Below are positions 8,425 through 37,679 of a stretch of 44,739 nt of DNA, piece by piece (position 1 is the first letter of the stretch; each line of letters starts with the position of its first letter). The notes below the pieces were generated by a model. That model saw only the letters and a list, made by a program, of their open reading frames with translations, ran no database searches and had not been told where the DNA came from. The translations under genes were made by a program, and so were the position numbers. The DNA comes from a virus. The stretch is from the UHGV virus genome UHGV-0135379. One strand, written 5' to 3'.

Positions 8425-8591
8425 CCTAAGAAATTCCTCGTCGTCCACATCGCATTCGGATATTTGTTATCGCGGTCCTGTACTACGGCAATCATGTTAC
8501 CGCGTTGTACCAGGCAGAAGTGCCGCTGCTGCTCGCCGTTGTAGCGACGCCAGATTGCTTCTTCGATTGCCGCGTTGATGTCGCTGAACAT
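8421..8591 (-). CDS. Hypothetical protein (56 aa)
   Basis: ATG ORF translationally coupled to 8188-8424; weak RBS. Confidence 0.35.
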   Translation of the reverse strand: MFSDINAAIEEAIWRRYNGEQQRHFCLVQRGNMIAVVQDRDNKYPNAMWTTRNFLG

Positions 8592-8678
8592 TAGTATCTA
8601 CCCCACACAAAACCAACCAATACGCCGATAAAATAGCTTGCCACTACAAGACCAATAACCGCCTCAAGACTCATACCC

Positions 8679-21453: not shown

Positions 21454-23625
21454 ATGAGTTACCTGTTCTTAGACTTTGAAACATTCTCCGAAGCCGATTT
21501 AAAGAAAGTCGGCTCCTACGCTTACGCCGAACACCCGTCAACCGAAGTGCTAATCTGCACATATGCCTTTGATGACGAGCCTGTACAGGTATGGGATTGC
21601 ACCGACGGCAGCGACATGCCGGGAGATTTGCACCGCGCCTTGCGCCGCCTGGTTAAGCCAAACAGCCGCACCAAGATGGTGTGGCACAACGGCTCAATGT
21701 TCGATAGGCTCATCATGAAGCACTGCTGGGGTTTTGATATTCCCGTAAGCAACACCATTGATACGATGATTTGGGCGTTTCGTCACGCGCTGCCAGGTTC
21801 ACTGGATGCCTTGTGCGAAGTGTTGGGCGTATCCGCCGACAACGCGAAAGATAAACGCGGCAAGGCGCTGATTCAGCGTTTCTCTAAACCGACACCGAAG
21901 AACTACAAAATCAGACGCTATACCGCAGAAACACACCCGGACGAGTGGGCGCTGTTCATCAAGTACGCCGTGAGCGACATCACCGCGATGCGTGAAGTCT
22001 TCCATAAGCTGCCACGTTGGGGTAACTCCGAGTTCGAAGACCGTGTACTGGAACTTGACCAGTTAATAAATGACCGCGGGTTTAAGGTTGACGTTGCACT
22101 GGCAGAAGCCGCGATTGAAGCCGTGGAGAAGCACAAGGCGCAGTTACAGGAAGAAGCCCAACGAAAATACGGTGGCTCTCTTACTGGTAAGGACTTCCTG
22201 CCGATTCTGCGTGAACTTGCGCCAGCGCACCGTATCCACAACGCGCAGAAGTCAACGCTTAACGACCTGCTGGCGGATGAGGATTTACCCGACGACGCCC
22301 GCACAATTATAGAAATGCGCCTCGGGGCCGCGTCCACTGCGTCAACGAAATATAACCCGCTGCTGTTGGGTCGCTCGTCGGACGACCGCCGCCGTGGTTG
22401 CATCCAGTACGGTGGGGCCAAGCGTACGTTACGGTTCGCAGGTAAAGGCTTCCAACCACAGAACCTGGCGCGCGGGTACTATCACGATGATGAACTGGAT
22501 AAGGGCATTTCAGCGCTACTTAAGGGTCGTGCGCATCGCCGTTTCGACGTAGCCAAGCTAACGGCGTCGACGGTTCGTAGCTGTATTATCCCGGAAGCAG
22601 GGCATAAGTTTGTCGTAGCCGATTACTCTAACGTTGAAGGCCGTGGTTTGGCGTGGCTGGCTGGCGAAGACGATTTAATAGAAGTATTTGTAAACGGGGT
22701 TGATGTGTATAAGAAACTCGCATCAACCGTGTTCAACGTTAGTTATGACGACGTAACAAAGGACCAAAGACAAATAGCCAAAGCAATGGTTCTCGGACTG
22801 GGTTACGCGGGGGGTGTAGGGGCTTTCGTCACGTTTGCTAAAAACTTAGGGCTTGATTTGAACGATATGGCCCGTACTTTAGACGGGACTTTCCCTGACC
22901 ATATCTGGGCCGCTACCGCACGAGGATATGAATGGGCGCGTATTCAGGAAGCCAAGCGACCGCCACGTCCTGGTGAAAAAGATGACCGACCATCATATAT
23001 TCTTGATAAGAAAGTTTGGCGCACCTGTGACGCTTTAAAGCGCATGTACCGGGAAGCTAACCCAGCAATAGTCCAATTCTGGCGCGATATTGAAGATGCA
23101 GCTATGGCGGCTATCCGCAATCCGGGTAAAGAGTTCACCGCAGGGCCGCGCGGGGTTAAGTTTTCGCGTAACGTAGAGACAGATAACAACGGCAACAAAG
23201 TCGCTGGTTGGTGGTTGCGTATGACGCTGCCGTCGGGTCGTGTTATGTCTTATCCAGGCGTCGGGTTAAGCGTATCAAAAGAGACAGACGAAGACGGGAA
23301 GGTGTCTACTAACGTGCGCATCAAGTACCAGGGCGAAAATCAGCTAACCCGACAGTGGGGGTTCCAGTACACATATTCCGGTAAACTCGTGGAAAACTGT
23401 ACGCAGGCGCTGTGCCGTGATTTGCTGGCTAATGCACTGCTGAACGTAGAAGCAAACGGCTACCCTATTGTACTTCATGTACACGATGAACTGGTATGTG
23501 AAACTCCAGATACGCCGGAATACAACGTAGCTGAACTGGAGAAATTAATGTGTGCGTTGCCAGAGTGGGCAGAGGGCTTCCCTCTTGTAGCAGAAGGTAG
23601 CGAAATGTACAGATACGCCAAGTAG
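21454..23625 (+). CDS. Family A DNA polymerase with 3'-5' exonuclease domain
   Basis: Exo I motif FLDFETFS; polymerase motif B (K...YG) and motif C (VHDE). Confidence 0.9.
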   Translation: MSYLFLDFETFSEADLKKVGSYAYAEHPSTEVLICTYAFDDEPVQVWDCTDGSDMPGDLHRALRRLVKPNSRTKMVWHNGSMFDRLIMKHCWGFDIPVSNTIDTMIWAFRHALPGSLDALCEVLGVSADNAKDKRGKALIQRFSKPTPKNYKIRRYTAETHPDEWALFIKYAVSDITAMREVFHKLPRWGNSEFEDRVLELDQLINDRGFKVDVALAEAAIEAVEKHKAQLQEEAQRKYGGSLTGKDFLPILRELAPAHRIHNAQKSTLNDLLADEDLPDDARTIIEMRLGAASTASTKYNPLLLGRSSDDRRRGCIQYGGAKRTLRFAGKGFQPQNLARGYYHDDELDKGISALLKGRAHRRFDVAKLTASTVRSCIIPEAGHKFVVADYSNVEGRGLAWLAGEDDLIEVFVNGVDVYKKLASTVFNVSYDDVTKDQRQIAKAMVLGLGYAGGVGAFVTFAKNLGLDLNDMARTLDGTFPDHIWAATARGYEWARIQEAKRPPRPGEKDDRPSYILDKKVWRTCDALKRMYREANPAIVQFWRDIEDAAMAAIRNPGKEFTAGPRGVKFSRNVETDNNGNKVAGWWLRMTLPSGRVMSYPGVGLSVSKETDEDGKVSTNVRIKYQGENQLTRQWGFQYTYSGKLVENCTQALCRDLLANALLNVEANGYPIVLHVHDELVCETPDTPEYNVAELEKLMCALPEWAEGFPLVAEGSEMYRYAK

Positions 23626-23659
23626 TAGATTTAGGAAATACGTTGTAGAAAATGTAAAT

Positions 23660-23692
23660 ACCGATATAGTGGCTATGTCGGTATTTTTTTTT
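23660..23692 (+). terminator. Rho-independent terminator after the DNA polymerase gene
   Basis: About 10-bp stem followed by a T9 run. Confidence 0.65.
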
Positions 23693-23702
23693 GGAGTTAT
23701 TA

Positions 23703-24398
23703 ATGAAAAAGTGTTCAAGATGCGGCGAAGATAAACCGGCGACTACAGAGTATTTTTCAAAGTCAACGCGCCTCGGGCTGCAACGCTGGTGTAAAGAGTG
23801 TGTAAATGCTAACAGGAAGGAAAAGTATGACGAAAAACTTAAATTACAAGGTAAATCCAGACGAGAAAGCCCTTGGTATGTTTTCACTGGGAAGCCTGTT
23901 AAATGCAGAAAGTGTGGGGAGGTAAAACCTTTAACAGAGGAAAACTTCAGGAAAGGAAATAAAAGTAATGGCTCTCATATCAGGAAAGATTGCCGGGAGT
24001 GTCTCAACAAGCAACGCAGGGAACTGGTGAATAAGGACCAAAGGACGCGGGCGTACGCGCTTTTGTTAGGATACAAAAGAGCAGATTCAGGAAAAGGGCT
24101 TATCTGCGATTTAACACTGGAAAGCGTTATTAAACTAATATCACAGCCATGCCATTATTGCGGAAGCACTACAAAAGTCGGGGTAGACCGCATAGATAAT
24201 ACAAGCGGGCACATAGTATCTAACTGCGTTTCTTGTTGTCAGACATGTAATCTTACCAGAGGACACCGGTTTACATTCATTGAAATGGTTACGGAGATAG
24301 GTCCCGCCATTAAAAGAATAAAAGCGGCGAGAGAAGTTTCACATATACCGTCTTTTCCTAATAGGTGGCCTGAAGGAGAATGTAGAGATGCCAAGTAA
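23703..24398 (+). CDS. HNH endonuclease with N-terminal zinc-ribbon repeats
   Basis: Repeated C..C pairs and HNH-like core VDRIDNTSGH...NCVSCCQTCN; AT-rich; ATG with GGAG RBS (track ORF starts at a TTG at 23691). Confidence 0.7.
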   Translation: MKKCSRCGEDKPATTEYFSKSTRLGLQRWCKECVNANRKEKYDEKLKLQGKSRRESPWYVFTGKPVKCRKCGEVKPLTEENFRKGNKSNGSHIRKDCRECLNKQRRELVNKDQRTRAYALLLGYKRADSGKGLICDLTLESVIKLISQPCHYCGSTTKVGVDRIDNTSGHIVSNCVSCCQTCNLTRGHRFTFIEMVTEIGPAIKRIKAAREVSHIPSFPNRWPEGECRDAK

Positions 24399-24519
24399 AC
24401 TAAGTATCGCGGTGCTGGCGGGATTCGCCGCTGGTGTCTACTGTCACGAGGGTCAATACGGCATGATGGTCGCCGTATTGGGTATGCTAGTAGCAATTTA
24501 TTTGTGGGTGCTGGAATGA
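24388..24519 (+). CDS. Small hydrophobic peptide (43 aa)
   Basis: ATG with GAAGGAGAA RBS; coupled to the next ORF. Confidence 0.35.
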   Translation: MPSKLSIAVLAGFAAGVYCHEGQYGMMVAVLGMLVAIYLWVLE

Positions 24520-24605
24520 AAATTTACTGGTTATACGAAGAAGACTGCCGAATCTGTCCGCGCTGCGGGATTGAGCATACGAAACGTGAGGGGTGCGTAT
24601 TATGA
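24516..24605 (+). CDS. Tiny Cys-rich peptide (29 aa)
   Basis: ATGA coupling at both ends; C..C....C..C spacing. Confidence 0.25.
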   Translation: MKIYWLYEEDCRICPRCGIEHTKREGCVL

Positions 24606-24754
24606 CAATGTTAGTATTCTGGACCATAGTAACCATGCTCGCACTGTTACTCGGCGCGGGAATAGCTGCGATGTTCTGTTACGGCCTGTTCTTTAAGTTT
24701 GTTGGCGTTGCCGTTCTCGGAGGAGCGTTTATAACCTGGGTTCTGCGCTCATGA
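24602..24754 (+). CDS. Small membrane peptide (50 aa)
   Basis: Two hydrophobic helices; coupled to the VRR-NUC start. Confidence 0.35.
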   Translation: MTMLVFWTIVTMLALLLGAGIAAMFCYGLFFKFVGVAVLGGAFITWVLRS

Positions 24755-25035
24755 CCCCGGAAGGCAAGATTCAGAAATACGCAAAAGAGCGATTCGAGGC
24801 CATTGGTGGCCTCGTTCGTAAACTTTCCTACGAGGGGCGCTCCGGTGCTCCTGACCTGCTGGTAATTCTCCCCGGCGGCATCGTCTGGTTCGTCGAGGTT
24901 AAGAAAGACGAAAATACGAAGCCAGACCCACACCAGTTACGTGAGCATGAGCGGATGCGTAAACGCGGTGCAAATGTTTTTGTCGTCGGTTCGTTTAAAC
25001 AGGTTGACGACCTAATAGCGAACTATTATAGTTAG
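24751..25035 (+). CDS. VRR-NUC domain nuclease
   Basis: PD-(D/E)XK-type core GAPDLLVIL...FVEVK; 94 aa. Confidence 0.75.
   Translation: MTPEGKIQKYAKERFEAIGGLVRKLSYEGRSGAPDLLVILPGGIVWFVEVKKDENTKPDPHQLREHERMRKRGANVFVVGSFKQVDDLIANYYS
25004..25032 (+). promoter_or_regulatory. Promoter TTGACG-N17-TATAGT with AATAG-CGAA-CTATT operator; upstream of 25066 and the SNF2 helicase
   Basis: Same architecture as 17926 and 20678; overlaps the last codons of the VRR-NUC gene. Confidence 0.6.
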
Positions 25036-25065: not shown

Positions 25066-25260
25066 ATGAAACACGAATATGACCGCAAACCAGCACGTGA
25101 CATCGTACCGGGTGACATGATTTTCAGCGTTAAGACCCGTCGGCCTGTTGCCGTTGATACTGTGTTTGTAGAGTCGAACGGTAAACTGGTTATCGAGGAC
25201 GTAACAGGTAACGTTACGGCGTTCGGGCGCAAAGAGCTGGTGCTCTACGTTAAGGGTTGA
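25066..25260 (+). CDS. Hypothetical protein (64 aa)
   Basis: ATG with AAGGA RBS after promoter 25004-25032. Confidence 0.5.
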   Translation: MKHEYDRKPARDIVPGDMIFSVKTRRPVAVDTVFVESNGKLVIEDVTGNVTAFGRKELVLYVKG

Positions 25261-37309: not shown

Positions 37310-37416
37310 TCTTTAATCCTTTGGTTAAGAGGTTACTGGTTAAAGGAAATGCGCCAGACGGGAACCACCCGCTTTTCGTGTGCGACACTAGGCGCAAAAT
37401 TATTCTAACATACTAC

Positions 37417-37445: not shown

Positions 37446-37487
37446 TCACTTACACCAACGATGTTATCTCAAATCAGGAGTTATGTT

Positions 37488-37679
37488 ATGACCGGTATCG
37501 CTATGTTCTTTTTAATTATTGTTGTAGGCGTTTATTTTATCCCGTTTTTTGTGGCCCATATGCGAAACCATAAAGCAAAGCTAGCGATATTCATGGCTAA
37601 CTTATTTCTCGGGTGGGTTCTGTTGCCGTGGGTATTCATTTTAATCTGGGCTTGTAACTCGAACGTGAAAGAGAAGTAG
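37488..37679 (+). CDS. Small 2-TM membrane protein resembling superinfection-immunity (Imm-type) proteins
   Basis: 63 aa from ATG at 37488 (AGGAG RBS); motif FIPFFVAHMRNH...LGW...ILIWAC; AT-rich; track ORF starts at 37461. Confidence 0.55.
   Translation: MTGIAMFFLIIVVGVYFIPFFVAHMRNHKAKLAIFMANLFLGWVLLPWVFILIWACNSNVKEK

Follow-up and report, generated by a model that had tools for sequence, protein, structure and literature searches.

In bacteriophage T7, genes 5.3-5.9 and an HNH gene adjoin the DNA polymerase gene, and gp5.5, gp5.7 and gp5.9 are host-takeover proteins. A comparable layout is found in the virus genome UHGV-0135379, the whole 44,739-nt stretch of which was analysed and is referred to here as the window. 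It holds three micro-ORFs of 43, 29 and 50 codons (ORFs A, B and C). As in T7, a family A polymerase gene is followed immediately, within one operon, by small ORFs that are in part dispensable and by an HNH gene of the homing type. In contrast to the soluble T7 proteins, A and C are predicted to be membrane peptides, and the analogy is one of layout only.

Described small membrane peptides include the Imm-type superinfection immunity proteins of T4, the type I toxins Hok and TisB, and the small holins. ORFs A and C resemble these in size (43-50 aa), hydrophobicity, Gly/Ala motifs and accessory distribution, but differ in having no sequence similarity to them, in lying outside the lysis cassette and in having no evident antisense RNA. 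The archaeal CPxCG micro-proteins are zinc-finger micro-proteins comparable to ORF B. Set against the CPxCG zinc-ribbon/rubredoxin-like knuckles of ribosomal protein S27ae, RPA12/RpoM, Nop10 and the 3-hydroxyanthranilate dioxygenase site, ORF B is alike in its knuckle, its tiny size and its hydrophilicity but lacks the second CxxC; the remaining ligands would be H21 and either C11 or C27. Closest of all are the existing families phrog_10404, phrog_38225 and phrog_14925, to which no function is assigned and from which A, B and C, respectively, differ in nothing essential, an HNH gene being interposed between polA and A in the window, in Bas73 and in one IMG/VR contig.

ORFs A, B and C are chained within the replication module of Guernseyvirinae phages

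The region of the window under study matches about 450 (~455) phage records of the Guernseyvirinae, encompassing Kagunavirus (Escherichia) and Jerseyvirus (Salmonella), the best matches being the BASEL isolates Bas73 and Bas74 at about 90% identity. ORFs A, B and C are confined to phages of this subfamily. The window itself is of Kagunavirus type, and the three ORFs belong to an extended replication/recombination module whose genes all run along the + strand, in the order DUF2800/PD-(D/E)XK nuclease, Enc34-type ssDNA-binding protein, family A DNA polymerase, HNH, A, B, C, VRR-NUC, a 64-aa ORF, helicase and Toprim protein. Annotated relatives carry A, B and C in the same order, with the same overlaps and neighbours and at 82-97% amino-acid identity, under the label of hypothetical proteins (Bas73_0041/0040/0039, UTI89UKE1_051/050/049 and phiWAO78-1 gp46/45/43 for A/B/C). 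Matches to the PHROG profiles are full-length for A (E 1.4e-30, residues 1-43 of 43) and C (E 4.9e-33, 1-50 of 50), and cover profile positions 5-32 of 36 for B (E 2.7e-21). Elsewhere in the window (37461-37679), a homolog of the superinfection immunity family Imm_superinfect (PF14373) was detected with an E-value of 1.6e-13. The features of the interval are as follows.

23611-23625, + strand: 3' end of polA, AGATACGCCAAGTAG, encoding R-Y-A-K-stop
23656-23686, + strand: terminator-like 14-bp hairpin and T9 run with which the inserted HNH cassette opens, also present in Bas73
23703-24398, + strand: HNH / endonuclease VII-like homing endonuclease gene (PHROG 1035, E 4.5e-30), equivalent to Bas73_0042 in Bas73
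24373-24378, + strand: Shine-Dalgarno sequence AAGGAG, 9 nt before ORF A
24384-24398, + strand: near-duplicate of the polA 3' end, AGAGATGCCAAGTAA, 12/15 identical to 23611-23625
24388-24519, + strand: ORF A, 43 aa, MPSKLSIAVLAGFAAGVYCHEGQYGMMVAVLGMLVAIYLWVLE, predicted accessory membrane micro-protein, phrog_10404
24516-24605, + strand: ORF B, 29 aa, MKIYWLYEEDCRICPRCGIEHTKREGCVL, core Cys/His micro-protein, phrog_38225
24588-24593, + strand: Shine-Dalgarno sequence GAGGGG, 8 nt before ORF C and within ORF B codons E25-G26
24602-24754, + strand: ORF C, 50 aa, MTMLVFWTIVTMLALLLGAGIAAMFCYGLFFKFVGVAVLGGAFITWVLRS, accessory and very hydrophobic, phrog_14925
24751-25035, + strand: VRR-NUC nuclease gene (Holliday-junction-resolvase type), last link of the ATGA chain

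The original prediction described three ORFs of 43, 29 and 50 aa chained by ATGA overlaps, and both the coordinates and the overlaps were borne out, with the C/VRR-NUC junction built in like manner (A/B, 24516-24519; B/C, 24602-24605; C/VRR-NUC, 24751-24754). At the upstream end, the ATG of ORF A is contained in the end of the HNH gene, 11 nt inside. The ribosome-binding or coupling signals that had been ascribed to the three ORFs are likewise present and conserved in relatives: A and C have Shine-Dalgarno sequences of their own, and B, with only a weak GGGTG, would rely on its overlap with A. The VRR-NUC gene also has a weak Shine-Dalgarno sequence. In all relatives a GGAG or GAGG motif is found at equal distance before ORF A, the Shine-Dalgarno signals and ATGA overlaps are maintained, and the start codons are ATG, with GTG as the sole, occasional replacement. 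No Rfam RNA family matched the interval, and neither a convincing antisense promoter nor a separate promoter was evident in it.

Upon 200 dinucleotide-preserving shuffles of the window, a four-ORF ATGA chain such as that formed by A, B, C and VRR-NUC was never obtained (0/200), and three-ORF chains arose in 31. The real genome has five ATGA chains of at least three ORFs. Chaining alone is thus weak evidence, since three-link chains are common in shuffled sequence and the five chains of the genome reflect a general style; the decisive evidence that A, B and C are micro-genes is evolutionary.

Rearrangements of the slot between the polymerase and VRR-NUC genes rebuild the overlaps

The comparison set was made up of 18 annotated relatives and 37 IMG/VR contigs, with 56 related sequences in all. 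The slot had one fixed order in 56/56 sequences, namely polA, (HNH), (A), B, (X), (C or HNH), VRR-NUC, in which optional elements are given in parentheses and X is a 64-aa ORF of the slot that is absent from this window. Presence and absence of A, X and C were seen in all combinations, indicating that the three are independent accessory cassettes.

The trio had been placed between the HNH and VRR-NUC genes by the original prediction. This is true of the window, but an HNH gene precedes A in only 3 of the 56 sequences (this window, Bas73 and one IMG/VR contig); it is a rare insertion, and the native upstream neighbour of A is the DNA polymerase gene. The inserted cassette starts with the hairpin and T-run just after polA and ends with a 12-of-15 copy of the last five codons of polA, and the 3' end of the HNH gene recreates the ATG of ORF A overlapping the upstream stop. 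In relatives devoid of this HNH gene, the ATG of ORF A overlaps the 3' end of polA itself, as seen at the junctions of UTI89UKE1 and phiWAO78-1; in the window, that ATG has been lost from polA through a TAT to TAC change.

Other rearrangements affect the downstream ORFs. Jerseyviruses missing A have a B product reading MLSKLII-YYFREEDCRIC..., in which the first seven codons of A are fused in frame to codon 4 of B. A deletion between copies of an 8-nt repeat (TGATTATC) accounts for this fusion, which leaves B with a start codon overlapping the polA stop. Where C is absent, either B ends in ...EGCIDEYA and overlaps VRR-NUC, or a T7 gp3.8-like HNH gene follows; in phage Jersey, a 43-aa stub of the latter gene is found at the B/VRR junction. 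ORFs A, B and C showed no similarity to either HNH gene. That every rearrangement restores the overlaps provides the best indirect evidence that coupled translation matters at this locus.

ORFs A and C encode accessory hydrophobic peptides

Among the about 455 related records, 224 had ORF A and 121 had ORF C, the former being absent from about half, and the latter from about three quarters, of the related phages. The hydrophobic character that had been noted for two of the three peptides was confirmed for A and C (GRAVY scores of 1.23 and 1.79, respectively), C scoring higher than any other of the window's 213 ATG-ORFs of 25-80 aa. Uncharged runs span 15 and 19 residues in A, and 31 and 16 residues in C. 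ORF A consists of hydrophobic segments (residues 5-19 and 24-42) around a conserved polar loop, Y18-x-H20-E21-G-Q-Y24. In ORF C, conserved positions include G18-A-G20, F25-C-Y27 and G35/L39-G40, with Gly/Ala packing motifs, and small-xxx-small motifs occur in both peptides (AGFAAG in A; GAGIAA and GVAVLGG in C). We consider A and C to be probable membrane peptides on these grounds, of ambiguous topology given that the first segment of A is just 15 residues long and that C was modelled as a single 48-residue helix (pLDDT 91), a model uninformative for fold searches.

Frameshifted or truncated variants of both genes exist, including independent frameshift alleles of A in assemblies and a 25-aa deletion variant of C in phage HSE2. 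Paralogy of the two peptides was rejected for want of support in a profile-profile comparison, which returned a probability of 0.5%, an E-value of 0.12 and five matched columns; the idea had come from chimera P0099, joining A(1-15) to C(24-50), and from common AG[FI]AA / VAVLG / WVL motifs.

The suggestion that small membrane peptides of this kind could be toxic host-targeting factors could apply to A and C only, B not being a membrane peptide. Stated in full, A and C would either disturb the inner membrane, by depolarising it or making it permeable, or act as inhibitors of a host membrane protein, which is a specific version of the broader reading of A and C as accessory membrane peptides. 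Their small size, extreme hydrophobicity and small-xxx-small motifs are in line with such activity; so is their patchy, accessory distribution, reminiscent of host-interaction 'moron' genes, and the independent frameshift alleles of A fit a gene that is dispensable or costly. Searches of Pfam, PHROGs, NCBIfam and PADLOC, however, revealed no homology of A or C to toxin, holin, superinfection-immunity or defence families, and no match to the Imm-type family PF14373 was obtained. With regard to holins, both genes lie in the replication operon rather than in the lysis cassette, and holin families in Pfam, PHROGs and NCBIfam gave no match. With regard to type I toxins, A and C are indeed small hydrophobic peptides, but neither family homology nor a cis-antisense RNA regulator was found. 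Nor was the tight regulation usual for toxic peptides seen, A and C being, on the predicted scheme, constitutively coupled to translation of the polymerase. Toxicity of A and C is regarded as unlikely.

ORF B is the constant gene of the slot

ORF B was found in 445 of the about 455 related phage records and in 56/56 of the sequences examined. Of 60 evenly spaced records sampled, 50 were annotated, and about 21-23 of these had no CDS over ORF B. Its product is a soluble peptide and the sole universally conserved member of the trio. It is hydrophilic and contains four cysteines and one histidine arranged as C11-x2-C14-x2-C17-x3-H21-x5-C27, placing five potential ligands within 17 residues. The original prediction had rightly singled out a cysteine-patterned peptide but misread its spacing, which is C11-x2-C14-x2-C17-x9-C27 with H21, not C..C....C..C. 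Seventeen residues of B are invariant (I3, Y4, E8, E9, D10, R12, I13, C14, R16, C17, I19, H21, T22, K23, R24, E25 and G26), the invariance of C14, C17 and H21 having been scored in the BLAST-retrieved set. C14 and C17 belong to a CPxCG knuckle (I-C-P-R-C-G). Some genomes have R, Y or F in place of C11; in others, C27 has changed to R or been lost to a frameshift. That C11 and C27 were never both lost was considered as a sign of ligand redundancy and set aside, the observation having no statistical power (expected joint loss of about 0.1 in 56).

Two known folds were considered for this pattern and rejected. A retroviral-type CCHC zinc knuckle (C-x2-C-x4-H-x4-C) has different spacing from the x3/x5 seen here, and no zf-CCHC match was returned even at E<=10. 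A zinc ribbon or rubredoxin-like domain would call for a second CxxC, whereas B has a single CPxCG knuckle, and matches in PDB and Pfam were insignificant. None of the Pfam zinc-finger models reached threshold on B. Similarity of B to proteins outside its family was confined to CPxCG metal knuckles, over 6-14 residues and with E-values of 0.2-4.6 (PDB). Used as a query, the 41-aa mechanical ORF that contains B returned 13 close relatives only, and a full HMMER search of 1.84 billion representatives returned B's own family and five Cys-repeat proteins in which several short segments matched. The AlphaFold (AF2) model of B had a pLDDT of 54 and was unusable for fold searches. On balance, the arrangement of conserved ligands inclines us slightly towards a peptide that binds a metal. 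What links B to polA or to VRR-NUC is gene order.

The three ORFs evolve under purifying selection in the called frame

In the BLAST-retrieved set, pN/pS ratios in the called frame were 0.26 for A, 0.19 for B and 0.21 for C. In the enlarged set, they were 0.25 for A, 0.23 for C and 0.11 for B, this last value being biased downward by a retrieval pattern that fixed part of the B sequence; for peptides as hydrophobic as A and C, compositional constraint may contribute to the low ratios. The same calculation applied to the flanking genes yielded 0.18 for the C-terminus of polA and 0.18 for VRR-NUC. The other two + frames, in contrast, gave ratios of 0.77-2.35, and the minus-strand frames either contained stops in nearly all sequences or gave ratios of 2.3-2.5, whereby coding on the minus strand was discarded. 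No in-frame stop was present in 43 (A), 56 (B) and 23 (C) loci. Variable alignment columns clustered at third codon positions (5/7/22 for B), and peptide lengths did not vary among 69 protein clusters for A and 100 for C, on contigs of 41-45 kb. ORF B shares the frame of polA/HNH, which in many genomes continues without a stop across A; the possibility that B is joined to polA/HNH by read-through or frameshifting was nonetheless rejected, as this frame has stops in several relatives and a pN/pS of ~2.

Frame-specific purifying selection together with the lack of stops indicates that ORFs A, B and C are genuine genes, and we regard it as very probable, from these substitution patterns, that all three are under selection. 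Conservation of the frames in relatives, which the original prediction had itself named as a check, was thus upheld across the 56 sequences, with starts, Shine-Dalgarno signals and overlaps preserved. So was its claim that micro-genes had slipped below an ORF-length cutoff, their frames being conserved under selection comparable to that on polA and VRR-NUC. A published RNA-seq study of a Kagunavirus annotated 57 genes and did not resolve the scale of the micro-ORFs (PMC12645636). Our search of the literature retrieved no functional or expression data for ORFs A, B and C.

The selection data bear on the idea that the micro-ORFs are pure translational relays from polA to VRR-NUC, their peptides being inert. 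The ATGA chain does run unbroken from polA/HNH to VRR-NUC, whose own Shine-Dalgarno sequence is weak; overlaps are rebuilt after every rearrangement; and ATGA chains (five of at least three ORFs) are the general style of this genome. Yet a relay predicts a pN/pS near 1, as opposed to the observed 0.11-0.25 (the lower bound being the downward-biased value for B), which equals that of the flanking enzymes, and it leaves the 17 invariant residues of B unaccounted for. Furthermore, B is joined directly to VRR-NUC in some relatives; A and C are then unneeded as relays and yet are conserved where present. We find this explanation very improbable. More improbable still is an arrangement like that of phi29 p1/p16.7, in which A, C or both would tether the replication machinery to the membrane and B would serve as an adaptor binding DNA or protein. 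The genes do lie within the replication operon, presumably co-translated with polA, and the trio does combine membrane peptides with a putative metal-binding peptide, but the phages that lack A (about half) or C (about three quarters) still replicate, the occurrence of A, B and C in all combinations speaks against an obligate complex, and family searches uncovered no sequence relationship to the phi29 proteins. Finally, the ORFs might be decaying vestiges of homing endonucleases or other larger genes, or might have arisen by chance in DNA whose conservation has some other cause, for instance a homing site or an RNA element. This would agree with a slot that is a homing-endonuclease hotspot, with the HNH stub of Jersey and with the HSE2 variant of C, but is scarcely credible in the face of frame-specific selection, zero stops in the 43, 56 and 23 loci, constant lengths over about 170 protein clusters, the dissimilarity of A, B and C from either HNH gene, the absence of an Rfam match in the interval and a closed minus strand. 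Each of these alternatives loses ground either to the selection data or to the fact that A and C are dispensable.

Discussion

The reading that we favour, with moderate confidence as a whole, is that of three coding micro-genes, translationally coupled, of which B is a core metal-binding peptide and A and C are accessory membrane peptides. Ribosomes ending the upstream cistron, natively polA and here the HNH gene, would re-initiate at the overlapping stop/start sites and pass from A to B, C and VRR-NUC, aided by Shine-Dalgarno sequences embedded in the preceding codons. The product of B would be a soluble peptide that most likely folds round one metal ion, probably Zn2+, with the invariant C14, C17 and H21 and either C11 or C27 as likely ligands; its role would probably be that of a small cofactor or modulator in the polymerase/VRR-NUC module, with which it would constantly be co-translated. 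ORFs A and C, in turn, may be seen as unrelated, individually dispensable inner-membrane micro-proteins, carried as accessory cassettes in a hotspot of recombination and homing endonucleases. They would most likely modulate a function of the host membrane (takeover, exclusion or counter-defence) and act outside of the replication machinery; toxicity is one possibility beside exclusion and counter-defence. Any specific function proposed for A, B or C is doubtful at best. A bolder version, according to which B is a so far unrecognised universal core gene of the Guernseyvirinae, its 29-residue metal-binding product serving either the family A DNA polymerase or the VRR-NUC resolvase as an obligatory accessory factor, while A and C form a novel type of mobile cassette for membrane micro-proteins and travel with homing endonucleases in the same hotspot, is a long shot.

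The phage group is well sampled, and much of this picture is familiar, including the families themselves, phage membrane micro-proteins, Cys-rich micro-proteins, coupled operons and homing-endonuclease hotspots; it opens no long-standing question and would not surprise a phage genomicist. Modestly new are the standing of B as a universal element of the slot that annotation often misses, and the finding that rearrangements always rebuild the overlaps.

For this phage group, the results mean that ORFs of less than 50 codons are real genes, the smallest of which, B, is the most conserved and yet often goes unannotated. This is of relevance to annotation pipelines and to phage engineering, in which Kagunavirus phages (CM001 and the BASEL isolates Bas70-76) serve as compact chassis (PMC11990801). 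Should B prove to be an obligatory cofactor, it would rank among the smallest cofactors known to be dedicated to replication or recombination. With a core micro-gene set amid optional micro-gene and homing-endonuclease cassettes, and with overlaps that are always rebuilt, the locus amounts to a natural experiment in which translational coupling and phage micro-protein function can conveniently be studied.

Junctions of the HNH cassette with polA and A

Within the window, the last five codons of polA (23611-23625) are matched at 12 of 15 positions by the end of the HNH cassette (24384-24398), the insertion that separates polA from the hydrophobic accessory peptide gene A. Because the cassette thus ends in a near-copy of the polA 3′ end, the overlapping ATG of ORF A is recreated at its downstream junction. 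At the end of polA itself, the original ATG has been mutated (TAT>TAC) and the stop codon is TAG rather than TAA. Directly 3′ of polA, the cassette begins with the following element, which also occurs in the close relative Bas73:

23656-23686, + strand, terminator-like strong hairpin with a 14-bp stem and a T9 tail

Possible roles of this hairpin are to attenuate transcription that continues past it, towards the HNH gene and the micro-ORFs, or to restrict expression of the HNH gene.

Genes occupying the B/VRR-NUC interval in related phages

A T7 gp3.8-like HNH homing endonuclease gene was found at the junction between B, the Cys/His core peptide gene, and VRR-NUC only where the genome is devoid of C, the second hydrophobic accessory peptide gene:

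L010, 1415-1906 (also present in L012 and L016)
L011, 1415-1537

In phage Jersey, a 43-aa stub is left of this gene, and in other genomes the same HNH type follows VRR-NUC or lies between polA and A.

Some relatives carry an additional 64-aa ORF, here termed cassette X (MSNKPFSKKL...CAGCTHKG...; L004 and L003, 1415-1609 in each; L007; L014), which is missing from the window. Flanked by B on one side and by either C or VRR-NUC on the other, X experiences very strong purifying selection, its pN/pS being 0.04, and yields a weak match to the A2L zinc-ribbon (E 0.0047).

Variants and annotation of the micro-ORFs

Public assemblies hold variant proteins (P0099, P0168-P0173, P0070 and P0086) that may be natural or assembly-derived, reflecting either alleles or sequencing errors. 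Among them is an A(1-15)-C(24-50) chimera that comes from a 44.8 kb contig and in which B is deleted. B-C fusions also occur, as do several independent frameshifts joining A to the frame of B. In an evenly spaced sample of phage records, about 21-23 of the 50 annotated records carry no CDS over ORF B, its sequence being intact there.

Other features of the window

Two features were identified at and beyond the 3′ end of VRR-NUC:

25004-25032, + strand, promoter-like site TTGACG-17-TATAGT (10/12) at the VRR-NUC 3′ end
25066-25260, + strand, 64-aa ORF (phrog_4879, E 1.7e-44)

In the Jersey record, the equivalent of the former carries a promoter annotation; the latter is kept in all relatives examined, its counterpart being named 'CooT family nickel-binding protein' in one record. 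Elsewhere, an RNA match adjoins an immunity gene:

37334-37398, - strand, int-alpA RNA (Rfam; 36.6 bits, barely above the gathering score of 35.8)
37461-37679, + strand, Imm-type superinfection immunity gene, 72 aa (PF14373, E 1.6e-13)

Finally, three very hydrophobic ATG-initiated ORFs of 25-33 aa (GRAVY 1.4-1.6) were noted:

2287-2388, + strand
2720-2797, + strand
8591-8674, - strand

These might be further membrane micro-genes.
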